A stretch of 64,000 bases of DNA from Deltaproteobacteria bacterium (lineage in GTDB: Bacteria; Desulfobacterota; GWC2-55-46; JAJCZF01), in contig JAJCZG010000119.1 in assembly GCA_029262475.1 (NCBI GenBank), positions 3,378 through 67,377 on the forward strand, written 5' to 3'. The number at the start of each line of letters is the position of its first letter. Position 1 is the first letter of the stretch. Shown in pieces: positions 13,537-38,190 of this stretch. The position numbers and the translations under genes were made by a program. The notes under the pieces are model-generated. The model made no database searches, was not told the origin of the DNA, and saw nothing but the letters and a program-made list of their open reading frames with translations.

Positions 13537-15636
13537 GTGATAGATTCGCTCTTTAAAAGCGCTCGTTCCATAAAATACTTCGGGGCCGCTGTCGCGTGCT
13601 TCGCGCTCTATACGGTCGTAACTTCTTTTAACGCTCTATCCCCTCTTCAGTGGGGGATAAGCCTTCTCCTTACGGCTGGCGCAGCGGGTATCTACTTCTC
13701 ACTTAACGCGCCGCCACTAAAAGCGTCCCCCGTAAAGACTTCGCTAACGGTCTTCACCTTTTACATCATAGCCGCACTCCTGGTATTTCACCCCACGATG
13801 CACAATATCTTCAGGAGTGATTACTGGCAGATATCTCTCTTATTTAATAGCATTTCGGAGTTGACCGTAGATGCCGCAAAGAGGCTCTCGCTCTTCGAAA
13901 TCTTCGGAGATATGCGCTTTCAGCCCGCCGCGCACCTCCTTATGTACTTCAGAGACCTTGCCTTCGGTAGCGAGGTCTTACTCTTTCATCTCCTTAATAT
14001 CACTCTCCACTCGGTAACCGGCTTTGCCCTATACGGCGCCCTTAACCGTTTCACGCGAGACCGGGCCTTCTCTTTCATATTCGGGCTTCTTTTTATAGTC
14101 CTCCAGAGCCACTTCGACACCGTTGTCTGGACCTATCATATCTATATAATACTCGGCTCCATACTGCTCCTCACCGCCGTTAACCTCACAAAGCGCTACA
14201 TAGACGGTGAGACGGCAGTCTCTATCTACATAGCGGCCCTCCTGTCAATAGTCTCCATCCTCCTCTACGAACCGTCGATAGCCATCCCGCTCCTCCTCTT
14301 TTTAATGGTCGGCGCGGCCTTCTTAACCAAAGATGGAGGGGTAGATAAGAAGCGGCTTATTATTGCCGGAGCCGGAGCCGCAGCAGTATATATTTTATAC
14401 GCAGGTGTTACGCTATTCGGCTTGTCGCTTACAGAAGGGGCACACAAGGTCGTCTCCGGCGGAGACCTCATAACCGTTGATAATATCTTAAAGGGGCTCG
14501 TTGCGCTCTTTAAAAGCCTCTGGCATACCATCTACCTTGAAAACATTGGCATTACGGCGGAGCTAAATATCGTAGAGATAATCTACATTCATCCGCCGGA
14601 AGAGTTAATTACGAGTTTTACTGCTGTAGTCATAATGGCCCTGTCGCTCGCCCTCTTCTCGCTCATGCGCGCAGACAAGAAGAACCGCTACTTCGCCCTA
14701 CTGCTGATACTTATTGGAATCTCCTACTTTTCGGTAATAGCGCTTGGAAGGGTCCACTCCAATTCGATAAGGTACGTTACCTCCCAGTCCCGTTACTTCT
14801 ACTTCCCGAACGCGGCCATCCTGCTCGCCTCAGGCATTCTCCTCTACCGGAAATACGGTGAGCAAAGCGCAAGGTGGATAATACTCATAATACTAACGGC
14901 CATCTTCTTCTGGAATACCTCGAATACCCAGATGGCGAATAACGCCGTCGATAGGAATATGCGCTTCCTGGACGCCCCCCACTACGAGCTAAAGGCATTT
15001 ACGGCCTCCAACCCTCAGGCGAAAGTATTTATCGACTACATCCCCTTTAACGAGGGGCGCCTCTTCCTCGGCTCCGATATTGCTCTGGAGATAATGCACA
15101 GAGGAGCGGTCACCAGGTATAAACGCCTTGCGACGCATATCTACGACGAGCGCGGTCTAAGGAAGAACCCATCCTACATGGCGGGCGCAGTACCTTCTCC
15201 GACACTCGGCGATTTTACCGTCAAGTGGACATTCCGCTTCTTCAAGCAGGCCGAGTCGTGGAAGGATATAGTCGTCATCGGCTCAGAGAATAATTACCCG
15301 CGCATTACGACCACCCTCGACGGGGTCATAAAACTTGCTCTCGTTAACGTCGAAACCGGCGCTGTAGAGGAGTTAAGCTTCCACCCGTCATACTTGCTAA
15401 AGGGCTATAACGACTGGTTCGAAGTTACCCTTGTAAAAGAAGGGGACGTTATCTGCCTCAAATACTTTGACATGATTAGCGATTCGGTGACCCTTACGTC
15501 GGAGTACGTGAACTGGCGTGCGGACGGCACGGAGCTCCTTGGCCCGCACTACTACGGAAAGGGCGCATCCTCTTACATTGCCGACCTCTTCCTGATGCTC
15601 GACGAAGCCAGGGGCGGGTGCGGAAAGCTCAAATAA
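13537..15636 (+). CDS. GT-C fold membrane glycosyltransferase, TMTC/PMT_2 (DUF1736)-like, paralog 1. It has an unassigned ~300-aa C-terminal domain and uses a GTG start.
   Basis: A multi-pass N-terminal domain carries RSDYW...RFQPAAHLL...FHLLNITLHSV...LFIVLQSHFDTVVWTY. These are collinear with the TMTC blocks DFWG...SYRPLT...YHLLNMIFHA...LFAVHPIHTEAVTGV. Compare the paralogs at 15654 and 31144. Confidence 0.6.
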   Translation: MIDSLFKSARSIKYFGAAVACFALYTVVTSFNALSPLQWGISLLLTAGAAGIYFSLNAPPLKASPVKTSLTVFTFYIIAALLVFHPTMHNIFRSDYWQISLLFNSISELTVDAAKRLSLFEIFGDMRFQPAAHLLMYFRDLAFGSEVLLFHLLNITLHSVTGFALYGALNRFTRDRAFSFIFGLLFIVLQSHFDTVVWTYHIYIILGSILLLTAVNLTKRYIDGETAVSIYIAALLSIVSILLYEPSIAIPLLLFLMVGAAFLTKDGGVDKKRLIIAGAGAAAVYILYAGVTLFGLSLTEGAHKVVSGGDLITVDNILKGLVALFKSLWHTIYLENIGITAELNIVEIIYIHPPEELITSFTAVVIMALSLALFSLMRADKKNRYFALLLILIGISYFSVIALGRVHSNSIRYVTSQSRYFYFPNAAILLASGILLYRKYGEQSARWIILIILTAIFFWNTSNTQMANNAVDRNMRFLDAPHYELKAFTASNPQAKVFIDYIPFNEGRLFLGSDIALEIMHRGAVTRYKRLATHIYDERGLRKNPSYMAGAVPSPTLGDFTVKWTFRFFKQAESWKDIVVIGSENNYPRITTTLDGVIKLALVNVETGAVEELSFHPSYLLKGYNDWFEVTLVKEGDVICLKYFDMISDSVTLTSEYVNWRADGTELLGPHYYGKGASSYIADLFLMLDEARGGCGKLK

Positions 15637-15653
15637 GCGTAGCGAGAGATTAA

Positions 15654-17759
15654 TTGAATAAAGACTATACAAATGCGATTCGCTTCACCGCGCCGGTAGG
15701 AGCTATATTTGCCATCACAGTCGCCTATACGACGTGGAGCTCGCTAAACTCGCTGCCGCCTTATCAGTGGGCTCTGGCATTCGCGCTACTAATAATTGCT
15801 CTTACGGCGCTCTTCTTTATGGAGAAGGGTCTACTAACCGCGAGGAGAGCGGCAGGCGTAACCGTCATCATCTACGCTCTCGTCGCATTTACGGCCTTTC
15901 ACTCCACAACCGGCAATATTTTCAGGAGCGACTACTGGCTAATCGCCGAGCTCTTCAACTCCTTCGACCAGGTAACCATCGATACGCTCAGGAGGATCTC
16001 TCTCTTTGAAATAATGGGCGACCCGAGGTTCCAACCTCTTGCCCACCTACTGATGTATTTACGGTTTCTCGTCTTTAAATTCAACCCGCTGGCCTTTCAT
16101 ACGCTCAATATCGCGCTCCACACTCTAACGGCCTTTCTTATTTACCTTATCGTTAAGGAGTTCACAGCCGAAAAGGGACTGGCCTTCATAACGGGGCTCA
16201 TCTTCATAGTGCTCCAGAGCCAATTCGATACCGTCGTCTGGACCTATCATATATATATTATTACCGGCGGAGCACTCCTCTTCGCCGCCATCCTCCTTGC
16301 CAGGAGATACTCAGTCACAGGAGAGAGGGCGTATTTCATATATGCGGTTCTATTCTCTCTCGCCTCGCTCCTCCTCTACGAACCGGCGGTAGCCGGGCCC
16401 GCCGCCGTAGCAGGCATAGTTTTATTTAACTGGCGACGCGACGGGCAAGCGGCGCCCCGGCGGACCATTTACTCTACTGCTCTAATCGCAATTGCCGCTT
16501 ACATCGCTTATATGTTGGTTACACTCTTCGGCACCTCTCTTACGACTACAAGCCACAAGATGGGCATGGGAGAGCTCACTACCTTATCAAATATTGGCCT
16601 TGCCGTTAAGGCGCTCTTCGTTAACTTATGGCAGAGCTCTTTTATCATAAATACCGGCATGACGGCTACGCTCGACCTCTCCGATATCGTTTACATACGG
16701 ATGCCTGAGGATATATTTACCACGATAAATATCATAAAGCTCATACCGGTCGTCTTTCTTGCGGCATCACTAAGGGCGGTAAAGGGGACGAGGGCTACCG
16801 CCGCGATAATCGCTACCATCGCCCTCTCCTACCTATTTATAATATCGCTCGGAAGGATGCATTCCAATTCGCTCGAATACTTCATAAGCCAGCCGCGTTA
16901 CCAGTACTTCCCCAATGCCGCGCTCATAATCCTTGTGGCCGTACTCCTGAGCGCAAAGTTTAAGGAGAAGATAAAAAAACCGCTTATCAGTGCCGCCCTC
17001 GCAGCTATCTTCTTCTGGAACCTGCAAAATACCCTTATAGCGAATAACAAGGTCTCAGACGGCATGGAGTTCCTCGACTCACACTATTACAGGATAAAAG
17101 ATTTTACCGCGAATGACCCGTCGAGAAAGCTATATATGAACTTTACTCCCGGCGAAGGTTTGAGGTTTGCACTCGGAGCGGATATCGCCCTCGACCTCAT
17201 GCTAGGCGAGCGCCTCAGCTCATTTCCGAGTAAAGCCACGCATATCTACACAGAGGACGATATCATGGAGAACCCTTTCAGGTCGGGCGGCGGCGTGGAG
17301 GCGGCAGAGCTCGGGAACTTCTTTGTCTCGTGGACATACCTTCCGGTCTACAAATTAACTCCGCAAGATGACGTGGAAGTGCTTGGGGGTAAGCACGGAG
17401 GGGCGCGTATATCCATTACCAACACCGGAGAAGTTAACTTCAGGGCAGTAAGGGCCGATACCGGTACTACCGATACTATTACACTAAAAAACCCTTATTT
17501 TGCCTCCTCGTACGCTTCACCGGAGGGCAAAAAAACACTCAAACATATGGCCGTCGTAAAGGACGGTAACGAGATTTGCCTTTACTTTAATAATAGACTT
17601 GCCGATAAAAAGATATTACACTATCCATATAAGAACTGGAGAGTGGACGGAAGCGAGCTCTTCGGAAGCCACTACTCAGGGAGTGGCGGTGCGGCCTACG
17701 TCCTCCGGCTCTTTAAACAGTTGGACTCCTCAGACTACTCATGCTCCAGCGAATCGTAG
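15654..17759 (+). CDS. GT-C fold membrane glycosyltransferase, TMTC/PMT_2 (DUF1736)-like, paralog 2. It is a tandem duplicate of the upstream gene.
   Basis: RSDYWLIAELFNSFDQ...RFQPLAHLL...FHTLNIALHTL...IFIVLQSQFDTVVWTYHIYII. It is collinear with paralog 1 along the whole length, including the C-terminal domain (…KNWRVDGSELFGSHY… against …VNWRADGTELLGPHY…). Confidence 0.6.
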   Translation: MNKDYTNAIRFTAPVGAIFAITVAYTTWSSLNSLPPYQWALAFALLIIALTALFFMEKGLLTARRAAGVTVIIYALVAFTAFHSTTGNIFRSDYWLIAELFNSFDQVTIDTLRRISLFEIMGDPRFQPLAHLLMYLRFLVFKFNPLAFHTLNIALHTLTAFLIYLIVKEFTAEKGLAFITGLIFIVLQSQFDTVVWTYHIYIITGGALLFAAILLARRYSVTGERAYFIYAVLFSLASLLLYEPAVAGPAAVAGIVLFNWRRDGQAAPRRTIYSTALIAIAAYIAYMLVTLFGTSLTTTSHKMGMGELTTLSNIGLAVKALFVNLWQSSFIINTGMTATLDLSDIVYIRMPEDIFTTINIIKLIPVVFLAASLRAVKGTRATAAIIATIALSYLFIISLGRMHSNSLEYFISQPRYQYFPNAALIILVAVLLSAKFKEKIKKPLISAALAAIFFWNLQNTLIANNKVSDGMEFLDSHYYRIKDFTANDPSRKLYMNFTPGEGLRFALGADIALDLMLGERLSSFPSKATHIYTEDDIMENPFRSGGGVEAAELGNFFVSWTYLPVYKLTPQDDVEVLGGKHGGARISITNTGEVNFRAVRADTGTTDTITLKNPYFASSYASPEGKKTLKHMAVVKDGNEICLYFNNRLADKKILHYPYKNWRVDGSELFGSHYSGSGGAAYVLRLFKQLDSSDYSCSSES

Positions 17760-18916: not shown

Positions 18917-21406
18917 CTACTCTTTAGCGCTCTTATCCTCTTTCATATAGAATTTTTTCAGGTTAAATCTGGCGTTGACGTGCTCGGGATCAATCTTCAG
19001 GGCTTCTTTATATGACTTCTCCGCCTCTTTCGTTCTGCCTACCTTTTCATAGAGGATACCGAGGTTATTTAAGGCATAGGCATGTTTCGGGTCGGAACGC
19101 AGAGCCTCCTTGTATGCCTGCTCAGCCTCGGTAAGCAGGCCCATCTTGCCGTATATAATACCCTGGTTATAATAGCCGTTGGCGTAGTCCGGGTCAAGCT
19201 TCAGGGCCTCTTTATAAACATCGACGGCCGAGCGGTGCTCGCCCATCTTGCTGTAGAGATTTCCGAGGTTATTGTAGGTATAGGCATAGCCGGAGTCGAG
19301 CTTTATCGACCTCTTATAGGCCCTCTCAGCCAATTTGAACTTACCTGTCTTGGAGTATAGGTTGCCGAGGTAGTAATAAGGCCACGAGAAGTCAGGGTCG
19401 AGTTCGCTGGCCTTATTGTACTGTTCTATGGCCATCTCACTCTTCTTCATATCGTCGTAGATGGTGCCTAGCCTCAGTGTAAGTGTGGCCTTGACCTTCT
19501 TGTCGTCATGGTCCAGCGCGAGACCCTGAAAGACGTCTTCAAGCGCCTGGTGGAAGTTCTTACCCCTCCAGGCATCGGTTGAGAGAACAAGATAGTCCTC
19601 CGGAGCCCTGAGCTTCGCGTTTCTAAGCTCCGCCTCCTGAACCAGCTCAACGAGGGCCCTTGCGTCCTTCTCCGATGGTTTGTCCTGCGCCGCGCTCAGG
19701 GCAAGCGCCCTCTTCTCAGAGGTAAATGGAATGTAGGTCGGGTCAGTATTTTTGACGTAAAACCTATCCCTTAGATAGGGCTTTGCCACCAGGCCCGCTA
19801 CAGCGAGGATGCACACTATCAAGAGATAAAATATCACTGAGTGGGCCCACTCGCTTCCCTTCTTCTTCGTTGAAACGCTGCTGGGGGCCGGAGCGATATG
19901 GATCCTGCTGTCCATCCTTGAAGGGGCCTTTGGAGGGACGTACGCTCCCGGAGTCGACGGCAGGATTATGCATCGAGCCTCTCCTCGGTTCATCCTGCTT
20001 GATGGCGCCGCCTTGTTAACGGGCGGGGCCATCCACGAAGCGGTCTTCCTTGTGGTAGTCGTAACGGAACTTACCGATGGAGATACGGCGGGGGTATTGT
20101 CTTTAGACGGAGGGGTGCCGGGAGAAGAGACGGCAGGGGCAACATCAATACCTGAAGCTTCTCTTTTAACAGCGACCTTTGCGCTAATGGGCGTTACTCC
20201 TGCGCCATTGCCGCCAGGCTCCACGGAGAGCGCATCCCGTCTACCCTTCTTCTTTGTATAGAGAAAATCCTCTGGAAACCCGGCGCTATCCGTCCCTTCG
20301 AGCGTCTCTTCACCCTCCATTTCAGGCATATCGGACGAATCCAGTTCGTGGAGGTAAGGCACCCTGTGTTCGGCAAAATAAGGCTCTTTAGGCTCAGGGG
20401 CTTCCTTTGCCGCCAGAGCGCTATTTTCTTTGATACCCCTGCTGGAATGCTCTTCCGCTTCAAAGCCTTGTGACTTTTCATCACTTGTCGAGATTCTCCT
20501 CTTCCTCTCGGAGGCGGGGAATTTTTCAATATTTATCACAACGGCATCAGACTTCCAGGCTTTATCATCGGCATCTACGGCAGCCTCTGTAGTCACAGAC
20601 TCATCTTTGCGCCCAGATGAGCCCCCCGTGACATCTTCGGCGGCAGAGGAGGCTAGTACCACCGCAGGTGGTATGATCTCAACTTTACCGGCAGGGAACT
20701 CTTCAATCTTGATTGGAGATCTTTGCTCCGCCGTGGCGGCTTCTCCCGGAGCCTTTAAAGAAGGACGCGAGTGCGCGCACTCATCTTCACTAGCAAGAAC
20801 GGCAGGAAATTTCTCTATATTTATTATACTAGAAGCAAAGCTTTTTACGGAATCAGACCTCTCCGACTCTTCTTCATTCGAAGCGGTTGGCGTTTCTTTC
20901 CCGGTGGAGCGAAATTCTTCTATTACTATCGGCTGGCGCTTAGTGCTCATCACTGAAACCTCGTTGTCGTTATAATCCGCTACCGACTCTTCACGAGCCT
21001 CTCCGGCCTCCTCGGCAGCAGCGTCTTCGATAAGACCTGCTTCGGGAGCCTTCAGCTCCTCGCACTCATCAACTTCACCCGGGAGCCCTACCTCTGCAAT
21101 GATAATGGCGCTCGGGTCCGGGACTTCGATTGGCGAGGCTACCTGGAGATTCTCACTAGCTCCGGACTCAGCCATATCCTCTGTATTAGACGTCTCTGCA
21201 AGTGCACTATCTGGTGCAGCGGATATGGGGGCTTGAGCATTCTCCATAAGCTCATCAGAGAGCACGATAGCGTTATCCCACCTTCCTGCATAACCGCATC
21301 TCAGGCAATACATTACATTTCTGGCGATATTAATTCGCAGATGTGCGCCGGTGTCCGGAGCCATACCGGTATCCTGACAATAAGGACAATTACACTGTTT
21401 ATCCAT
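18917..21406 (-). CDS. Zinc-ribbon / TPR-repeat membrane protein of 829 aa. Layout: cytoplasmic CxxC...CxxC N-terminus, an acidic low-complexity linker with four I(N/E)IE(K/E)F(P/R) motifs, one transmembrane helix, then a C-terminal TPR array.
   Basis: The N-terminus reads MDKQCNCPYCQDTGM...YCLRCGYAG. Four motifs occur: QPIVIEEFRS, SIINIEKFPA, SPIKIEEFPA, AVVINIEKFPA. The transmembrane helix is SVIFYLLIVCILAVAGLVA. At least six TPR units follow, for example AYTYNNLGNLYSKMGEHRSAVDVYKEALKLDP. Confidence 0.7.
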   Translation of the reverse strand: MDKQCNCPYCQDTGMAPDTGAHLRINIARNVMYCLRCGYAGRWDNAIVLSDELMENAQAPISAAPDSALAETSNTEDMAESGASENLQVASPIEVPDPSAIIIAEVGLPGEVDECEELKAPEAGLIEDAAAEEAGEAREESVADYNDNEVSVMSTKRQPIVIEEFRSTGKETPTASNEEESERSDSVKSFASSIINIEKFPAVLASEDECAHSRPSLKAPGEAATAEQRSPIKIEEFPAGKVEIIPPAVVLASSAAEDVTGGSSGRKDESVTTEAAVDADDKAWKSDAVVINIEKFPASERKRRISTSDEKSQGFEAEEHSSRGIKENSALAAKEAPEPKEPYFAEHRVPYLHELDSSDMPEMEGEETLEGTDSAGFPEDFLYTKKKGRRDALSVEPGGNGAGVTPISAKVAVKREASGIDVAPAVSSPGTPPSKDNTPAVSPSVSSVTTTTRKTASWMAPPVNKAAPSSRMNRGEARCIILPSTPGAYVPPKAPSRMDSRIHIAPAPSSVSTKKKGSEWAHSVIFYLLIVCILAVAGLVAKPYLRDRFYVKNTDPTYIPFTSEKRALALSAAQDKPSEKDARALVELVQEAELRNAKLRAPEDYLVLSTDAWRGKNFHQALEDVFQGLALDHDDKKVKATLTLRLGTIYDDMKKSEMAIEQYNKASELDPDFSWPYYYLGNLYSKTGKFKLAERAYKRSIKLDSGYAYTYNNLGNLYSKMGEHRSAVDVYKEALKLDPDYANGYYNQGIIYGKMGLLTEAEQAYKEALRSDPKHAYALNNLGILYEKVGRTKEAEKSYKEALKIDPEHVNARFNLKKFYMKEDKSAKE

Positions 21407-30151: not shown

Positions 30152-30261
30152 GTTATATTCAAAGACGCCCTCTCTCGAGGCGCATGAAGACGAAAAAAGC
30201 CGCCCTGATTAAAAGGCGGCTTGTCGGAGAGAAGGAATAATCTCTCTAAAACAATTTATAT

Positions 30262-30350
30262 AAAGCCGCTTCCCTACGCCGGCATTACCCGGTTCAGGTC
30301 GAAAGGGTCATTCAAACAAGAAACTCTCAGTCCGTGAAGGACTCCCCTAG
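30262..30350 (-). ncRNA. TPP (THI-box) riboswitch in the leader of the thi operon
   Basis: The minus strand reads GGGGAGUCCUUCACGGACUGAGAGUUUCUUGUUUGAAUGACCCUUUCGACCUGAACCGGGUAAUGCCGGCGUAGGGAA. It contains CUGAGA, ACCCUU, GAACCUGA...GGNUAAUGCC and GCGUAGGGA, all in the THI-element order. Confidence 0.85.
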
Positions 30351-30364
30351 CGATTATCGAATAT

Positions 30365-30967
30365 CTACATAAGTTTGCTAGCCGAAATTACCGACTCGGC
30401 GATCTCGTGCATCTTCTTATTCTCCTTCTGAGAATGGCTTTGAAGGAGCTTAAAGGCCTCCTCCTCGCTTATATTACAGCGCTTCATTACGATGCCCTTG
30501 GCCCTCTCGATGAGCTTTCTCGTCTCGATGGCCTGCTTTAAATCCTTTACTTCGTCCTTCAGGCCAAGGAACTGCTCGAAACGCGCCAGGGCGACCTTTA
30601 TCGCCGGCTCAAGGTGTTTCTTTGTGATGGGTTTTACGAGATATGCGAAGACCCCTGCCTCAACAGCCTTATTGGCAAGCTCGTCTGTTGATACTCCCGT
30701 AACGAGGATCACCGGCACGGGATTTTCCTTCGTGATCTCATATGCGGCCTCAATGCCGTCCATCTTCGGCATCTTTACGTCCATTATTACCAGCGAAGGC
30801 ATGTGCTCTTCTGCGAGGGAAACCGCCTCTTCTCCGTTGGATGCGGCACCCACCACTACATAACCAAGCGCCTCCAGATGCCCCTTGAGGCACTTTCTCG
30901 TCTGGGCGTGATCCTCTGCTATAAGTACAGTCTTTCCGTTCTGATGCTGCTTAATTTCTTTGGCCAT
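30365..30967 (-). CDS. ANTAR-domain response regulator (REC + ANTAR RNA-binding antiterminator, AmiR/PdtaR-like)
   Basis: A 200-aa protein. The receiver part has VLIAEDHAQTRK..., ...LVIMDVKMPKMDG... and ...AYLVKP... The ANTAR part has ...RKLIERAKGIVMKRCNISEEEAFKLLQSHSQKENKKMHEIAESVI... Confidence 0.8.
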   Translation of the reverse strand: MAKEIKQHQNGKTVLIAEDHAQTRKCLKGHLEALGYVVVGAASNGEEAVSLAEEHMPSLVIMDVKMPKMDGIEAAYEITKENPVPVILVTGVSTDELANKAVEAGVFAYLVKPITKKHLEPAIKVALARFEQFLGLKDEVKDLKQAIETRKLIERAKGIVMKRCNISEEEAFKLLQSHSQKENKKMHEIAESVISASKLM

Positions 30968-31143: not shown

Positions 31144-32550
31144 TTATCGCCTAAAGCTACTTGCCCCGTTCTCCCCCCGGCGATCAAGTGAGGTGAATAT
31201 CCTCTCCGAGAGAGTAACGATGGCAAGCACACCCACCACGAAGAACCCGAGGGAGGCGAGATAAAGCCTGTGCTCGAAGATAACGTCTATGATCGGTATA
31301 AAGCTCGAAGTAGGTGATAATGTTATGAAAAACCAGAATATAAAAAATGACGCTACTGCCCCTGTCCCCCGGACGCCGCCAGAAAGCTTGCTGCTTTCGG
31401 CCTCGCCTGTGGCAGGCCCAACGGAGTGGCGAGCGAGGTAAAAGGCCGCGCACAAGATCAACGCCAGTATAAGAAGAGAGACCACGGACGGGGGCTGAGG
31501 GTAATTCAGCACGGTGCCTCCCTTTACCTTCGGGGCCTTGAAGAGTGAGGTTGAAACCGGGAAATCATAATCGATATTCTGGTTAACCGGAACCGCAAGG
31601 AGCGTTATATAATACGTCAGCACGTTTAACTGTGTGTACATATACTCGCTCGGGCTCAGTCCCTTCACGTTAAAACCGGCGCTCTCCCACGACTCCCTTG
31701 GAGCGACACCTTCCGAGGAGACGACCCCGGCGGCGGCTGAGAGACCATCCGAGCCGATGGCTCCGTCACTGAGGTCGCCAAAACCGCCTAGCGGGATGAT
31801 AGTAGAGACGGCGAAGTAGATGAGGAGCGTTAGGAGCAGGGCGTAGAAGGGCGCTCTCTTAACGAGCCCTCTTAGCCCAAAACCACTAAGGAAGTAATAG
31901 TCGTAGAGTATGATAAGGGCTGGGAGCGTAATGGCTATCTCCTTGGAGTAAAAGGCCATTACATAAGTAAATAATACGCCGAAGTAGAGGAGTATCTTCG
32001 ATTGCAGCCGCTTTACTCCGTCGGCGAAGATAAAGAGGAGCAGCGCCAGGAGGCAAAATAATGCGCTAAGGCTCTCCATGCGCTGCACTATATAGGTAAC
32101 CGACTGCGTTTGAACCGGATGAAGGGCGAAGAGGAGCGCGGAGAAAAATGCAACGGCCCTTACCCTCGGCACGGGCCAAGAGAGGCGCGTAAATGTAGCG
32201 GCAAGCACAAAGTACGAGAGTATGGAGCTTATTATGTGTATAAGGGTATTAACCAGATGAAACCCGGTAACGTCTAGCCCGGAGGCCAGGTAATTTAGGG
32301 CGAATGTATGAAAGGTTACGCCGCGTAGCTCCTGAAAGAGTATATACGGCAAGTAGGTGAGGTTCCTTATGCGCGGGTTTCCCGCAATCTGCCTGAAGTC
32401 GTCTAAGTGAAAGGCCGAGGTAAAGGTATTGGAATAGACTACGATAACCGAGGCGCATATGATGGCGGCGGCTACAACGGGAAACAGTCTCGCTGAGAAG
32501 AAGCTACGCATCTCTTCCCTTCTTATCGCTATCTGACACCGCGCTTCCAC
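31144..32550 (-). CDS. GT-C fold membrane glycosyltransferase, TMTC/PMT_2 (DUF1736)-like, with no extra C-terminal domain
   Basis: FHLDDFRQIAGNPRIRN...FHLVNTLIHIISS...ALLFALHPVQTQSVTYIVQR is collinear with the TMTC/PMT_2 motif blocks. The protein is 468 aa and entirely polytopic. Confidence 0.6.
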   Translation of the reverse strand: MEARCQIAIRREEMRSFFSARLFPVVAAAIICASVIVVYSNTFTSAFHLDDFRQIAGNPRIRNLTYLPYILFQELRGVTFHTFALNYLASGLDVTGFHLVNTLIHIISSILSYFVLAATFTRLSWPVPRVRAVAFFSALLFALHPVQTQSVTYIVQRMESLSALFCLLALLLFIFADGVKRLQSKILLYFGVLFTYVMAFYSKEIAITLPALIILYDYYFLSGFGLRGLVKRAPFYALLLTLLIYFAVSTIIPLGGFGDLSDGAIGSDGLSAAAGVVSSEGVAPRESWESAGFNVKGLSPSEYMYTQLNVLTYYITLLAVPVNQNIDYDFPVSTSLFKAPKVKGGTVLNYPQPPSVVSLLILALILCAAFYLARHSVGPATGEAESSKLSGGVRGTGAVASFFIFWFFITLSPTSSFIPIIDVIFEHRLYLASLGFFVVGVLAIVTLSERIFTSLDRRGENGASSFRR

Positions 32551-33175
32551 CAGACGGCTTGGCGCTTCTATTGGACGGCTTACCTGCTGCCCTGCCGGAA
32601 GATTTATTTAATCTCCCGGCGGACGGCCTGGCGCTTCCACCGGACGGCCCGGACTTAGGAGCTCTACCCTTAGCCGAAGGGGATGGCTCACTACTACTAC
32701 CACTACCTGCTTCGTCCGGCTTTGAGGCGGCCTTACCTCTATAGCCGCCTCCTCTTCCTACCCTTCCGGAGCTACTCCTTCCAGTCGGCTTGGCCCCGGA
32801 CGTTCTTCTATCCCTGCCCTTCACCTCACCCGGCTTCCCGTCTCTTGCAAGCTTCTCCTTTAAGAGAGAGAGCTCCTGGGTAAGGACCTTATTCTTGTCA
32901 TAGAGGATGGAGATTACGACAGAGAAGTGAAGGAGTATCAGGATAACGAATATAAAGGCTACCAGGAAGAGCAGCGAGGGGGCGTATGAGACGCCGACCA
33001 TCCCTGCAATCCTGTCCAGAAGGCCGCGCCAGAGCGACAAGATGATAACGACTACGGAGAGCGCGAGCCAGAGGACGGAGTACTTCTCCTTTAGAAGATT
33101 TCGCCTTACGAAGTCCACTACCACTGCGAATAAGAAGACGCTCGCAAGTATGGAAATAATTTGAACGGTATTCAT
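32504..33175 (-). CDS. DUF2304-family small membrane protein with a ~110-aa Gly/Ser/Arg/Lys/Pro-rich C-terminal tail
   Basis: The N-terminal ~110 aa form 3-4 transmembrane helices (…ISILASVFLFAVVVDFVRRNLL…), as in DUF2304 proteins found beside GtrB-like GT2 genes. The tail reads …GRSSSGRVGRGGGYRGKAASKPDEAGSGS…. Confidence 0.55.
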   Translation of the reverse strand: MNTVQIISILASVFLFAVVVDFVRRNLLKEKYSVLWLALSVVVIILSLWRGLLDRIAGMVGVSYAPSLLFLVAFIFVILILLHFSVVISILYDKNKVLTQELSLLKEKLARDGKPGEVKGRDRRTSGAKPTGRSSSGRVGRGGGYRGKAASKPDEAGSGSSSEPSPSAKGRAPKSGPSGGSARPSAGRLNKSSGRAAGKPSNRSAKPSGGSAVSDSDKKGRDA

Positions 33176-33241
33176 AAGCCTCCGAAGCGGAAAACACTGG
33201 TATCTTTATCCATTAAATGTACCATGAGCCGCGCTCTATTT

Positions 33242-33955
33242 CTACTTGTCGGGCCTCCTAAGGAGGTCGACGAAGATGGCGAATAGGACTTTTAGCATAT
33301 AATAGACAGACCACATGGGGGTAATAGAGCTGCTCCCCCCCTTTCTGCCGGTCATCTTAACGGGCACTTCCATTATGCGGAAACCCTTCTTGTGGAGCAT
33401 AACGAGCACCTCGACCTCCGGGTAATCCTCCGGGTAATTCGTGCAATAATACTCTATCACACGCCTCCCGACGGCCCTGAAGCCTGATGTCGTATCCGTA
33501 AGGCGCTCCTTAATGATAAAAGAGACGACCCTTGAAAATATCGCAATACCCGCCCCGCGTGGTATCGACGGCCTGTAGTCCCCGGTCCCCAGGAAGCGTG
33601 AGCCGACGACGACGTCCGCCTCGCCTCTAACGACAGGGGCGACGATCTCTCTAATCTGAATGGCCGGGTGTTGACCGTCGCCGTCCACCTGCACGGCTAT
33701 ATCGTAGCCGTTATCGCGCGCGTATTTATACCCGGTCTGAACGGCGCCGCCTATTCCGAGGTTATAGGCGAGGGTAAGTACCTTCGCACCGCGAGAAGTG
33801 GCAATTTTACCGGTCTCATCCGAGGAGCCGTCGTCTATAACGACAATATCGCCTTCGGGGAAGCCGTCCCTGACCGAATCTATTACAGCTCCGATGGTCG
33901 CCTCTTCCTGAAATGCAGGTACTATAATCAGTGTTTTAGGGATTTTGGGGCTCAT
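33242..33955 (-). CDS. GT2 polyprenyl-phosphate sugar synthase (GtrB / DPM1-like)
   Basis: A 237-aa protein. LIIVPAFQEEATIGAVIDSV...IVVIDDGSSDETG... and ...VQVDGDGQH... are the GT-A DxD/DXDD signature of dolichyl/undecaprenyl-phosphate hexose synthases. Confidence 0.8.
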   Translation of the reverse strand: MSPKIPKTLIIVPAFQEEATIGAVIDSVRDGFPEGDIVVIDDGSSDETGKIATSRGAKVLTLAYNLGIGGAVQTGYKYARDNGYDIAVQVDGDGQHPAIQIREIVAPVVRGEADVVVGSRFLGTGDYRPSIPRGAGIAIFSRVVSFIIKERLTDTTSGFRAVGRRVIEYYCTNYPEDYPEVEVLVMLHKKGFRIMEVPVKMTGRKGGSSSITPMWSVYYMLKVLFAIFVDLLRRPDK

Positions 33956-34028: not shown

Positions 34029-34115
34029 GAATGCTTTTTGGTGCCGAAGGGGGGACTCGAACCCCCACAGGCTTTCACCCACTAGAACCTGAATCTAGCG
34101 CGTCTACCAATTCCG
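34029..34115 (-). tRNA. tRNA-Leu (anticodon CAG)
   Basis: The minus strand reads GCCGAAGTGGCGGAATTGGTAGACGCGCTAGATTCAGGTTCTAGTGGGTGAAAGCCTGTGGGGGTTCGAGTCCCCCCTTCGGCACCA. It has a long variable arm, the anticodon loop TTCAGGT (CAG) and an encoded CCA. Confidence 0.9.
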
Positions 34116-34291
34116 CCACTTCGGCCCTTAAAACCCTCTAATTTTGCTTGCAAAAGAGGGTAAATAAAGCTATATTCAGAAGGTCCGGAGCCCTGCTTCG
34201 AAACCTTATCACAATCAACTTCAATCTTAAATATTCGCATACAATCTTTTTTTAGTCAATATATTTCACAGCCGGAGAAAGGGAGACACCG

Positions 34292-36744: not shown

Positions 36745-38190
36745 GTGCGGAAATCTATAAAGTTTCTCATTCTCGCTGCCATGATTACCCTAACCCTGCC
36801 TTTACTCTCTCCGGGGGGCTGCAAGGTTATGGCGGCTGAACTAAAACACTCGACTACGGAGGCGGACCGGAGGTCCGTAACGCTTACAATCTATAGTAGT
36901 GGGCCTGCCCTTATAGCCGATACTAGAGATATTAAAGTCGCCTCGCCCCGTGGCGCCCTTACCATGCTCGACGTACCGAAGACCATCCGCCCGGAGACGC
37001 TTCAGGTAGTAGCCAGGGACAAACGTGGTGGCGCTATAGACGGCTTAAAAGTCCTGGAAGCGAATTTCACATACGACCTCGCCTCAAATAGCAAGATACT
37101 TAAAAAGTTCATTGGCGAAGAGGTTACGCTCGTTGAAGATAACGATTTCCAGGATAGGACGAAGACAACGAAGGCAAGGCTCCTTAGATTTGACGGCGGG
37201 CCGGTATTTCTTATAGACGGAGAAGTTCACATAGGTCATCCGGGACGAATCGTACTCCCTGAAACTAAAGGCTTAACGCTAGCTCCGGCACTTAGCGTCA
37301 GGTACTCATCGCCAAGGCCCACGGCAGTTGACCTTACCGCCGTATATCAGGCGATGAGTATTGACTGGTCTGCGGACTATTCGCTTACACTCTCTAACTC
37401 CGGGACAAGCGCAAAGCTTTCAAGCTGGATAACGGTCGGAAACAATAGCGGCACGGACTTTAGAGGAGCCGGTATTACTGTCGTCGCCGGGGATATAAAC
37501 CGCGCACCCGAGGCGAATTATCCACGCATGAAGAGGTCCATGGTGATGATGGAGGCTTCAAGCGAACCCGTAACTAAGGGCGTCTTTGAATATTACCAAA
37601 TCAAAGTCCCGGGAAAAAAGACAATTCTGGACGGTGAGTCCAGGCACTTCGCTTATATGGCTTCGACCATTACCGGCGTAAAGAAGGAATATACGATCCG
37701 TGACAGAGCGGATTATAGTGGTCAGGCGGACGGGAAGACTAAACTTCCGGTCGAAGTCTCGGTTAAATTTAAGAACTCCAAAGAAAATAACGCTGGCGTC
37801 GCCCTCCCAGCCGGTATAATGCGTATTTACCATAAGAAAGGGAAAGAAGCTCCATTCTTTATCGGGGAAGAGCGCATAGGTAACACCCCGGAAGGCGAGG
37901 CTGTTAAGGTAAAGGCCGGTAGCGCTTTCGACATAACTGCGACGCGCACCGTAACCGACTTTAAGCGCATAAGGACCAGGCTCCATGAAGAGGCTGTAAG
38001 CGTCGCAATTAAAAACAGCAAGAAAGAGCCGGTTACCGTAACGGTAAAGAGTTCGCTAAGCGGCAGCTGGGAAATACTCGCCAGCTCCGAGCCATATAAG
38101 AAACTCGACGCCTATACCATAGGTTTTGATTTGACACTCCCCCCGGGCGGTGAGACGGAGCTTAGCTACCGTTACCGTACCGAACAGTAA
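36745..38190 (+). CDS. Secreted DUF4139 (with N-terminal DUF4140) protein, mucoidy-inhibitor MuiA-like family
   Basis: A signal peptide is followed by a beta-rich 480-aa protein. The family assignment is from memory of the TIGR02231-type architecture. Confidence 0.4.
   Translation: MRKSIKFLILAAMITLTLPLLSPGGCKVMAAELKHSTTEADRRSVTLTIYSSGPALIADTRDIKVASPRGALTMLDVPKTIRPETLQVVARDKRGGAIDGLKVLEANFTYDLASNSKILKKFIGEEVTLVEDNDFQDRTKTTKARLLRFDGGPVFLIDGEVHIGHPGRIVLPETKGLTLAPALSVRYSSPRPTAVDLTAVYQAMSIDWSADYSLTLSNSGTSAKLSSWITVGNNSGTDFRGAGITVVAGDINRAPEANYPRMKRSMVMMEASSEPVTKGVFEYYQIKVPGKKTILDGESRHFAYMASTITGVKKEYTIRDRADYSGQADGKTKLPVEVSVKFKNSKENNAGVALPAGIMRIYHKKGKEAPFFIGEERIGNTPEGEAVKVKAGSAFDITATRTVTDFKRIRTRLHEEAVSVAIKNSKKEPVTVTVKSSLSGSWEILASSEPYKKLDAYTIGFDLTLPPGGETELSYRYRTEQ

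Follow-up and report, generated by a model that had tools for sequence, protein, structure and literature searches.

The window, i.e. the whole stretch of 64,000 nucleotides analysed here, originates from an uncultured, metagenome-assembled genome (MAG) of a diderm-type, deltaproteobacterium-like organism. It comprises three neighbouring genes for a GT2 glycosyltransferase, a DUF2304 protein and a GT-C fold glycosyltransferase, in the following termed the triad. A check of the open reading frames recovered all three, co-oriented on the minus strand, at the coordinates first called. The features are as follows:

33242..33955, minus strand: GT2 glycosyltransferase gene, 237 aa, PF00535
32504-33175, minus strand: DUF2304 protein gene, 223 aa, PF10066
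32855..33175, minus strand: DUF2304 membrane domain, residues 1-107, PF10066
32504..32854, minus strand: low-complexity basic tail of the DUF2304 protein, residues 108-223 plus stop, by composition
31144-32550, minus strand: GT-C candidate as first called, GTG start at 32550
31144..32511, minus strand: GT-C fold glycosyltransferase with corrected start, 455 aa
32398..32403, minus strand: codons of D37-D38 (FHLDD), first periplasmic loop, predicted catalytic acidic pair
31666..31764, minus strand: hypervariable low-confidence insertion of the GT-C, residues 250-282, pLDDT below 50
31267..31275, minus strand: codons of E413-H414-R415 (FEHRLY), before the last transmembrane helix (TM), predicted donor lipid-phosphate site

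In an earlier note on this DNA the genes were described as partly overlapping. With the corrected GT-C start, DUF2304 and GT-C share 8 nt; GT2 and the directly downstream DUF2304 gene are separated by a gap of 66 nt. The length of 468 aa first given for the GT-C has to be corrected to 455 aa, with the ATG at 32511 almost certainly being the true start. A purine-rich Shine-Dalgarno-like stretch (AAGAAGGGAAGAG) lies in front of this ATG, whereas none was found in front of the GTG at 32550. Furthermore, the public gene calls start at the ATG (P0001), and 39 relatives align with the GT-C from its Met. Based on the 8-nt overlap, the Shine-Dalgarno-like sequences present for both the DUF2304 and the GT-C gene, and the synteny described below, the three genes most likely form one operon. 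A promoter-like site was observed ahead of the gene next to the triad and a TPP riboswitch ahead of thiH. No polysaccharide gene is found in the flanks of the triad in the lineage of the window, where it stands alone.

The Pfam domain matches of the GT2 and the DUF2304 protein lie far beyond what chance would give, the GT2 matching PF00535 at 9.3e-22. Its best matches in NCBIfam, all below the cut-offs, were PpgS (4.6e-30) and AglJ (7.7e-27), with a Dol-P-hexose transferase (1.7e-21) and ArnC among the further ones. Since the protein falls far short of every NCBIfam equivalog cut-off and passes the generic GT2 Pfam model only, with 104.7 bits compared to a cut-off of 370 for the PpgS equivalog (NF058614), it is no PpgS orthologue and the sugar specificity of PpgS cannot be transferred to it. 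Among PDB sequences, the best match was the Pyrococcus DPMS (5mlz, 3.6e-11, residues 7-213), and ArnC and GtrB were among those that followed. The protein contains a DD motif at residues 41-42 and a DGD motif at 91-93. Its hydropathy showed a single, marginal hydrophobic helix near the C-terminus (214-232); a TM hairpin of the GtrB type is missing. The grouping with PpgS, AglJ and DPMS supports the initial assignment to the polyprenyl-phosphate-sugar synthases, and from its sequence the GT2 is predicted to be the catalytic subunit of such an enzyme, similar to GacI, PpgS and DPM1. The dN/dS was 0.07.

For the middle protein, the family first assigned was confirmed by a match to PF10066 at 3.8e-24 (residues 4-107, 85.4 bits compared to a cut-off of 25.5). 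It is a small protein of 3-4 TM; 40 columns of its domain are invariant among relatives, and the dN/dS of the membrane part was 0.05 compared to the closest relative. The Pfam search showed no similarity to GtrA and a weak sub-threshold match to PIG-P, a small subunit of an ER glycosyltransferase complex. The view that DUF2304 merely occupies the slot of GtrA has to be given up, since the protein belongs to the GacJ/Rv3632 family, shown by experiment to bind and stimulate GacI and PpgS; according to the literature, its members serve such synthases as activating membrane subunits and are not flippases. GacJ co-purifies with GacI in a stable complex, shifts the Km of GacI for Und-P from 18.7 down to 1.1 uM with a ~340-fold rise in Vmax, and natural GT2-DUF2304 fusions are reported as well (bioRxiv 10.1101/180810). 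Likewise, PpgS is stimulated by Rv3632 (PMC9671496), and the arrangement of a GT-A plus a separate membrane protein is recognised (PMC8035078). By analogy, the DUF2304 protein is predicted to anchor the GT2 at the membrane and to stimulate its activity.

The tail of the DUF2304 protein, pointed out as unusual before, is real and comprises 116 aa, rich in Gly, Ser, Ala, Arg, Lys and Pro (G 20%, S 20%, A 12%, R 12%, K 11%, P 9%), with a net charge of +18. It is predicted to be cytoplasmic and disordered, and the GT-C start falls within its last 8 nt. However, the long form is confined to two genomes, i.e. to this protein and P0122, while the other family members comprise 122-176 aa with short, non-homologous ends rich in G, S, R and K. 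Compared to the membrane part, the tail showed an increased dN/dS of 0.29; its frame is kept in the one close relative that shares it, through five in-frame indels with 15 gap columns in total.

A structural comparison placed the third protein in the GT-C fold, as proposed, with Pmt4 and Pmt2 as best matches and ArnT among the others; its membrane core is similar to the ArnT/PMT type. The motifs quoted in the earlier note (FHLDDFRQIAGNP, FHLVNTLIHI, LFALHPVQTQSVTY) are present, but neither of the Pfam families named there, PMT_2 and DUF1736, matched the protein, even at E=10. DUF1736, which human TMTC proteins match below 1e-30, was found in none of 40 family members scanned and in none of seven further relatives at E<=0.01. 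One of the 40 relatives matched PMT_2 (PF13231) weakly at 4.2e-4, one matched Glucos_trans_II weakly, and the GtrII model missed the GT-C of the window. The family profile yielded no ArnT or Pmt match among PDB sequences, and the single-sequence search of the PDB returned non-GT-C chains only, with E of at least 0.18. At the profile level, the suggested relation to the TMTC proteins was recovered. With hhalign, the GT-C family proved homologous to the TMTC membrane domain, represented by 12 animal TMTC sequences from Additional file 1 of PMC7801869, at 99.86% and E=2.2e-31, with 24% identity over 360 columns. The loop equivalent to DUF1736 (TMTC TM7-TM8) can still be aligned from profile to profile (TQ..YY..LL.P.NQN.DYD vs TR.LT..YL..N.WLLL.P..L..DW).

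The GT-C comprises ten TM and ends after TM10. Only 43 residues with one hydrophobic segment follow the EHR motif, and both TM11 and the TPR domain are missing, whereas TPR-bearing relatives show a second hydrophobic segment and then the TPRs. Due to this absence, the C-terminus is predicted to be cytoplasmic. A long loop that faces outward, between TM7 and the helix equivalent to DUF1736, holds the insertion at residues 250-282; in the alignment of relatives this region ranges from absent to ~100 residues (~140 columns), with A, S, P, E and G being frequent. The dN/dS of the GT-C was 0.20. Within the TMTC-like superfamily, the protein belongs to a clade with 10 TM and no TPR, and it is predicted to be the periplasm-facing transferase for the polyprenyl-phosphate-sugar.

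The conserved acidic residue looked for in the first outward loop was found in the form of D37, which is invariant among 40 relatives, and D38, which is conserved in at least 90%. Both align with D52/D53 of TMTC1, which have been equated with D55/E56 of ArnT and D77/E78 of Pmt1 (PMC7801869). E413, H414 and R415 are all invariant, and the EHR motif aligns, with a shift of one residue, with the AERV motif of TMTC1 (E403/R404); a lipid-phosphate role of the corresponding Arg is known for STT3, PglB and AglB (PMC7801869). R63, E146, K190/E191 and D314/Y315 also align with functionally assigned residues of TMTC1. Except for D38, all of these catalytic-site equivalents are invariant, with relatives being 47-84% identical. 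The SHKS segment of TMTC, implicated in phosphate binding, is absent from the GT-C alignment.

The GT2 and DUF2304 genes lie directly upstream in 26 of 29 TPR-less GT-C relatives (missing in 3) compared to 1 of 40 TPR-bearing ones. The same gene order and strand were observed in 29 further loci from two phyla with differing other neighbours. The triad alone is shared between the deltaproteobacterial clade and the Nitrospirota loci, the latter being flanked by GT2, GT4, GDP-mannose dehydratase, methyltransferase and WbsX genes. Hence, the three genes are syntenic in relatives. The outcomes named in advance as speaking against the proposal, a third protein outside the GT-C fold or missing synteny together with an ordinary GT2, were not obtained.

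Further GT-C genes, absent from the earlier note, are located 13 kb from the triad:

13537..17759, plus strand: two tandem paralogous GT-C genes, 699 and 701 aa, 40% identical

Each of them encodes a C-terminal lectin-like beta-sandwich domain. A member of this family is the fourth operon gene with the triad in some relatives, and the lectin-domain GT-Cs may draw on the same lipid-linked sugar as further transferases.

Altogether, with a probability of roughly 0.7, the triad is an operon for multi-component extracytoplasmic glycosylation with a single sugar, the acceptor more likely being a membrane-proximal envelope glycan or glycolipid. Regarding the components of such systems, a synthase of the Pren-P-sugar type is found by homology and a GT-C is co-encoded, but a flippase was not found. 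According to the homologies, DUF2304 would hold the TM-less GT2 at the cytoplasmic face of the membrane and activate it, and the GT2 would load undecaprenyl phosphate with one sugar taken from a nucleotide sugar. As a weak guess by analogy, this sugar may be a HexNAc, since GlcNAc-P- and GalNAc-P-polyprenol are the products of the two GT2+DUF2304 pairs characterised so far. The lipid-linked sugar would then be flipped by a protein encoded outside of the operon and the window: neither contains a flippase of the GtrA or Wzx type, and the polytopic open reading frames of the window comprise lgt, the three GT-Cs, DUF2304 and four distant ones without assignment. A flippase encoded elsewhere is known for several multi-component systems (PMC8035078). 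As indicated by fold, motif conservation and synteny, the GT-C would finally bind the lipid phosphate via EHR and, by means of the D37/D38 loop, pass the sugar on to an acceptor at the periplasmic face. This acceptor would more likely be the LPS core or O-chain, or another surface polymer, than a protein. A glycan is more likely because the GT-C carries no TPR or other soluble domain, because the Nitrospirota triads sit among polysaccharide genes, and because the lectin-domain GT-Cs are operon partners in some genomes.

The missing flippase gene, the 3 of 29 TPR-less relatives without the upstream pair and the absent SHKS segment count against the main reading. Counting against a glycan acceptor, proteins are the targets both of the closest characterised homologues of the GT-C (the TMTC O-mannosyltransferases) and of its best structural matches (Pmt4 and Pmt2). 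The same machinery could therefore perform Ser/Thr O-glycosylation, e.g. O-mannosylation, of periplasmic, inner-membrane or outer-membrane proteins, and would then correspond in bacteria to eukaryotic TMTC/PMT O-mannosylation as well as to the actinobacterial Ppm1/Pmt. The best PDB sequence match of the GT2 being a Dol-P-Man synthase and the lack of glycan-polymer genes beside the triad in the lineage of the window point in the same direction. Nevertheless, a protein acceptor is considered unlikely, although it has a real chance. The TPR domain of TMTCs is thought to engage protein acceptors, and it is missing here together with TM11; moreover, the linkage to GT2+DUF2304 is nearly exclusive to TPR-less forms. 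The polysaccharide clusters around the Nitrospirota triad, the carbohydrate-binding-type domains of the partner GT-Cs and the best family match of the GT2 to a HexNAc-P rather than a Man-P synthase argue against it as well.

It is improbable that DUF2304 acts, instead of or besides activating the GT2, as the missing flippase in the role of GtrA. Its position equals that of GtrA in gtr operons, its 3-4 TM would fit, operon and window offer no other candidate, and the flippase of the PpgS/Rv3632 pathway in M. tuberculosis is still unidentified (PMC9671496). On the other hand, GacJ alters the kinetics of GacI in membrane preparations, where no flipping is needed, and the natural fusions fit a synthase subunit (bioRxiv 10.1101/180810); in addition, the group A Streptococcus (GAS) cluster has a separate Wzx-type flippase, GacK (PMC8035078), and no GtrA similarity was detected. 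An incidental adjacency, with the GT2 as an ordinary enzyme with a cytoplasmic product and the GT-C-like protein non-catalytic or part of an unrelated pathway, would agree with the match of the GT2 to no specific equivalog and the missing Pfam assignment of the GT-C. This explanation is largely refuted by the order and strand kept across two phyla, and the translational overlap of DUF2304 and GT-C, the conserved catalytic-site equivalents and the low dN/dS of both enzymes render it highly improbable.

As a rather unlikely, more far-reaching possibility, Thermodesulfobacteriota-like bacteria and Nitrospirota could have an undescribed pathway of envelope glycosylation with the triad at its core. 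A dedicated synthase of the GacIJ type would there supply a minimal 10-TM TMTC-type enzyme, which would O-glycosylate protein or prime an acceptor for extension by the operon-linked lectin-domain GT-Cs. If true, the TMTC superfamily, of which ~89,000 clusters at 50% identity match the profile, would gain its first tractable model in bacteria for which the donor supply is known. In the ordinary case, the triad is one more decoration system for LPS or a polysaccharide. In detail, the GT-C profile matched 89,416 cluster representatives at 50% identity (12,825 at E<=1e-30), and nearly all best-scoring ones show a bacterial GT-C membrane domain followed by TPRs and carry no functional annotation. 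No paper on an experimentally characterised bacterial member of the superfamily was found in the literature, and no solved structure was found by sequence with the family profile, which suggests that the TMTC structure is unsolved. Human TMTCs are disease genes. The TPR-less clade represents the smallest version of the TMTC-type catalytic module and the only one here genetically tied to a donor synthase, which opens a direct route to identify the sugar, reconstitute the reaction and obtain a structure. Furthermore, diderm anaerobes are added to the carriers of the split synthase of the GacJ/Rv3632 type, on which studies so far concern Gram-positives and Corynebacteriales, and a second, rare GT-C family with a lectin domain was uncovered, which appears to work beside the triad.

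Compared to known systems, the Gtr-like template first proposed does not fit, given the GT2 without the GtrB hairpin, the missing GtrA gene and a DUF2304 protein of the GacJ/Rv3632 family. Gtr (GtrA-GtrB-GtrX of Shigella and Salmonella phages) and ArnC-ArnT share with the triad the general scheme of a GT2 Pren-P-sugar synthase, flipping and a GT-C, there acting on LPS, and ArnT and GtrB/ArnC are among its structural and sequence matches. However, the C-terminal TM hairpin of GtrB/ArnC is replaced by a separate DUF2304 subunit, the GT-C misses the GtrII and PMT_2 models, and, in contrast to Gtr, the genes are not on a prophage. In human DPM1-DPM2-DPM3, small membrane subunits tether and stabilise a catalytic GT2 that has no TM of its own; this likeness of DUF2304 to DPM2/DPM3 is meant as a functional analogy only, not as family membership. 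The eukaryotic TMTC1-4 (CAZy GT105), which O-mannosylate cadherins and protocadherins, have a homologous membrane catalytic domain with common DD, R, K-E, D-[W/Y] and E-(x)-R motifs, and their TM11 + TPR architecture occurs in more distant bacterial relatives. The GT-C of the triad differs by lacking a DUF1736 match, TM11, TPR and SHKS segment, by its adjoining dedicated donor synthase, and by a donor lipid that would be undecaprenyl instead of dolichyl phosphate.

The closest templates are GacI-GacJ-GacL and PpgS-Rv3632-Rv3779. In Mycobacterium tuberculosis and Corynebacterium, PpgS (Rv3631), the best NCBIfam match of the GT2, and the DUF2304 homologue Rv3632 act with the GT-C Rv3779, which completes the transfer of GalN to arabinogalactan (PMC9671496). 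Unlike there, the GT2 is no orthologue of PpgS, the GT-C belongs to a different family, and its gene overlaps that of DUF2304, while Rv3779, as inferred from its locus number, is not adjacent to ppgS. GacI-GacJ-(GacK)-GacL of Streptococcus pyogenes adds the GlcNAc side chain of the group A carbohydrate. Here, a short TM-less GT2 and an adjacent DUF2304 protein make the Und-P-sugar, the gene order is the same, and a polytopic GT-C transfers the sugar outside the membrane (bioRxiv 10.1101/180810; PMC8035078). GacL, however, is a GT-C of another type than TMTC, GacK is encoded in the GAS cluster whereas the triad operon has no flippase, and the monoderm host carries the polyrhamnose acceptor in the same cluster, in contrast to the solitary triad of the diderm-type host. 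The triad is accordingly a variant of the GacIJL and PpgS-Rv3632-Rv3779 kind, a type of pathway already known, which here ends in an unstudied bacterial enzyme related to the human TMTC O-mannosyltransferases but reduced to a minimal form.

Three co-oriented ORFs on the minus strand were found exactly at the positions read from the sequence in the earlier note:

33242-33955, minus strand: GT2 gene, 237 aa
32504-33175, minus strand: DUF2304 gene, 223 aa
31144-32550 as first placed, minus strand: GT-C ORF, likely start at ATG 32511, 455 aa

The partial overlap described for these genes applies to DUF2304 and GT-C, which share 8 nt when the GT-C starts at ATG 32511, while GT2 and DUF2304 are separated by 66 nt. 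Translation of the GT-C most likely begins at this ATG, and a length of 455 aa is favoured over the 468 aa proposed before. The Shine-Dalgarno-like stretch AAGAAGGGAAGAG stands before ATG 32511, and no such sequence lies ahead of the GTG at 32550. The ATG is also used in the public gene calls (protein P0001), and the equivalent Met is the start in 39 of 39 aligned GT-C relatives.

Synteny was analysed with ORFs called in 79 related loci, against which the three window proteins were searched. GT2 and DUF2304 genes lie directly upstream on the same strand in 26 of the 29 TPR-less relatives, counting complete relatives with enough upstream sequence, compared to only 1 of 40 TPR-bearing relatives (locus L028). 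The conservation of the three-gene neighbourhood, for which the earlier note proposed a survey, extends over two phyla. The deltaproteobacterial clade keeps the whole neighbourhood of transaldolase, triad, ANTAR gene, thiHSG and lgt, and the triad is the sole part which eight Nitrospirota loci have in common with it. Since only the triad is shared by both lineages, gene order points clearly to a functional unit. The Nitrospirota triads are flanked by genes for GT2, GT4, GDP-mannose 4,6-dehydratase, methyltransferase and WbsX-type transferase (for example L043, 3573-8333, and L030, 3248-8118), a context that is read as a surface-polysaccharide cluster. The flanking GT2 in these loci (L030-L044) is larger and TM-bearing, and the methyltransferase is of the SAM type.

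Immediately downstream of the GT-C lies a further gene on the same strand:

30365-30967, minus strand: ANTAR-type response regulator

This gene is found at this place in 17 of the 21 triad loci from the deltaproteobacterial clade versus none of 8 in Nitrospirota. As a part of the triad it was rejected, being lineage-limited, absent from the Nitrospirota triads and preceded by its own promoter-like site (TTGACA-18-TATTTT, 31085-31056) between the GT-C stop and the ANTAR gene. Within the deltaproteobacterial clade, the thiH/S/G, lgt and transaldolase genes are conserved to the same degree as the ANTAR gene, whose location is best explained by lineage synteny. A tRNA-Leu(CAG) (34039-34125, minus strand) is encoded in the same orientation as the GT2, 83 nt ahead of its start, and is itself preceded by a promoter-like site at 34259-34230. 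Directly upstream of thiH-thiS-thiG, a TPP riboswitch (Rfam RF00059, 75.4 bits; 30254-30358, minus strand) sets the thiamine operon apart from both the triad and the ANTAR gene. The Rfam scan matched only this riboswitch and two tRNAs, with no match inside the triad. Based on the upstream tRNA-Leu, the promoter-like site before the ANTAR gene and the riboswitch before thiH, the triad is best read as a separate transcription unit.

The GT2 matched PF00535 with 9e-22, and its best specific NCBIfam matches, all far under the equivalog cut-offs, were without exception polyprenyl-phosphate-sugar synthases (PpgS with 4.6e-30, AglJ, a haloarchaeal Dol-P-hexose transferase and ArnC). The top PDB match was the Pyrococcus Dol-P-Man synthase (3.6e-11, residues 7-213), with ArnC and GtrB also among the matches. 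The protein carries the motifs DD(41-42) and DGD(91-93). Since its C-terminus comprises a single marginal hydrophobic helix, it lacks the TM hairpin present in GtrB and ArnC. The middle protein matched DUF2304 (PF10066; 3.8e-24, residues 4-107). For this family a role as synthase partner is described: GacJ of S. pyogenes is co-purified with GacI, a GT2 whose Km for Und-P drops in the presence of GacJ from 18.7 to 1.1 uM while its Vmax increases from 54 pmol to 18.5 nmol/min/mg (bioRxiv 10.1101/180810). The GacJ homologue Rv3632 of M. tuberculosis assists the GalNAc-P-polyprenol synthase PpgS (PMC9671496), and GT2-DUF2304 fusions occur naturally (bioRxiv 10.1101/180810; family covered in review PMC8035078). 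DUF2304 is thus more than an unstudied occupant of the slot of the GtrA flippase. Because of this partner role and the natural fusions, GT2 and DUF2304 are interpreted as a split synthase of the GacI/GacJ type, not as a GtrB/GtrA pair.

Residues 108-223 of the DUF2304 protein form a tail with 20% Gly, 20% Ser, 23% Arg+Lys and a net charge of +18. A comparably long tail was found in only 2 of 243 detected homologues, the window protein and P0122 of a close relative, whose GT-C is 84% identical to that of the window. The other homologues comprise 122-176 aa and end in short G/S/R/K-rich stretches that are unrelated. What sets the tail apart is its length rather than its kind. Between the two genomes, five indels (15 gap columns in total) all leave its reading frame intact, and dN/dS amounts to 0.29 in the tail versus 0.05 in the membrane domain. 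These values argue for a translated, fast-evolving, disordered extension. A cytoplasmic location is suggested by its positive charge and by its GT2 partner, which lies on the cytoplasmic side.

The proposed assignment of the GT-C to PMT_2/DUF1736 failed at the level of HMMs, since neither Pfam nor NCBIfam gave a match, even at E=10, and PDB sequence and profile searches returned no GT-C structure or other relevant match. Among 40 GT-C relatives scanned, only isolated matches were obtained, one weak to PMT_2 and one weak to GtrII. The structural comparison established the GT-C fold: an AlphaFold2 model from a 40-sequence alignment (pLDDT 82.8, pTM 0.85) ranked ArnT, Pmt2 and STT3 at the top in Foldseek, with weak E-values. 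For the likeness to TMTC, 12 sequences from a published membrane-domain alignment of animal TMTC1-4 (PMC7801869, Additional file 1) were compared with the family profile by hhalign, resulting in 99.86% probability, E=2.2e-31 and 24% identity over 360 aligned columns. TMTC1 residues with assigned roles in catalysis and donor binding (PMC7801869) map onto the window GT-C (455-aa numbering) as follows: D52/D53 to D37/D38, R93 to R63, D169 to E146, K219/E220 to K190/E191, D330/W331 to D314/Y315 and E403/R404 to E413-H414-R415. The mapped residues are invariant across the family except for D38, which is found in at least 90% of the relatives; the acidic residue sought in the first periplasmic loop is accordingly present and conserved. 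The likeness noticed from motifs is thereby borne out, though the Pfam models miss this clade. A literature search yielded no paper on a characterised bacterial TMTC-like enzyme, in agreement with the earlier note.

Relatives at about 35% identity comprise 550-830 aa and C-terminal TPR repeats. Beyond the EHRLY motif, these TPR-bearing proteins show two hydrophobic segments followed by TPRs, like TMTC, versus one hydrophobic segment and then the end in the window GT-C and its triad-linked relatives. The clade therefore represents a 10-TM catalytic core lacking both TM11 and TPR, with a C-terminus predicted to be cytoplasmic. The TMTC SHKS segment had no counterpart in the alignment to TMTC1. 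Residues 250-282 (31666-31764, minus strand) form an insertion in the long periplasmic loop that is hypervariable and rich in A/S/P/E/G. Among close relatives it is missing in some and reaches roughly 100 residues in others, and it shows a pLDDT below 50.

The GT-C profile matched 89,416 cluster representatives (50% identity), of which 12,825 reached E<=1e-30, and more than 586 GTDB species genomes contain a relative; the short TPR-less form is limited to roughly the ten top-ranking clusters. TPR-bearing TMTC-like genes are frequently arranged as tandem groups of two to five paralogues, with no GT2/DUF2304 pair nearby (L062, 3221-12643; also L040, L051, L060 and L061; one example is a Bacteroidales MAG). 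L028 (4899-7944) holds the sole triad-linked GT-C found with TM11 and TPR domain kept (664 aa), and may be a transitional form linking the TPR-bearing superfamily to the truncated clade.

Two further GT-C genes are present in the window:

13537-15636, plus strand: lectin-domain GT-C, 699 aa
15654-17759, plus strand: lectin-domain GT-C, 701 aa

These tandem membrane proteins of about 700 aa are 40% identical and gave no convincing Pfam match, only a weak sub-threshold one to TgpA_N. The family core (23 proteins detected in all) shows remote homology both to the triad GT-C (95.3%, E=2e-8) and to TMTC (96%). Members directly follow the triad as a fourth gene in two other genomes (L081 and L082), adjoin a TPR-type TMTC-like gene in a third (L085) and lie inside a deoxysugar/GT2 cluster in a fourth (L086). 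The window thus holds three GT-C genes versus one recognisable lipid-sugar synthase, which fits the use of a common donor by more than one of them; several transferases drawing on one donor have been described for other bacteria (PMC8035078).

Two other genes were considered:

18917-21406, minus strand: 829-aa protein, C-terminal TPRs at about 640-825, hydrophobic segment near 520
36745-38190, plus strand: 481-aa protein, weak sub-threshold DUF4139 match (30.9 bits, cut-off 31.8)

The 829-aa protein adjoins the tandem lectin-domain genes and a DsbC-like gene, and its N-terminal 640 aa or so gave no Pfam match. It was rejected as a TMTC-like paralogue or trans-acting TPR partner, being unrelated to the family (hhalign probability 0.3%) and having TPR repeats alone in common with the L085 protein. 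In L088, the closest relative, the gene of the 481-aa protein has kept its place beside the acyl-CoA ligase-like gene.

Altogether, fold, homology, conserved catalytic residues and synteny are established by the analysis, and the best-supported reading is a three-step pathway, for which we infer activities, sugar and acceptor. The GT2-DUF2304 complex would make an Und-P-monosaccharide at the cytoplasmic face, a flippase, of which no gene was found within the 64-kb window, would carry it across, and the minimal TMTC-type GT-C would pass the sugar to an acceptor at the periplasmic face. A glycan or glycolipid is favoured as acceptor, given that TPR is absent, that the Nitrospirota triads lie among polysaccharide genes and that partner GT-Cs carry a lectin domain. 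A protein acceptor stays a serious rival, since the closest characterised homologues of the GT-C and its best structural matches are protein O-mannosyltransferases.

The logic of such a synthase-flip-transfer system is already known from GacIJL, PpgS/Rv3632/Rv3779 and wider three-component systems. New is the final enzyme, which comes from an uncharacterised bacterial TMTC-like superfamily outside Pfam coverage and is present in a truncated form. Also new are its tight coupling to a GacIJ-type synthase in two diderm phyla and the rare lectin-domain GT-C that sometimes joins the triad.
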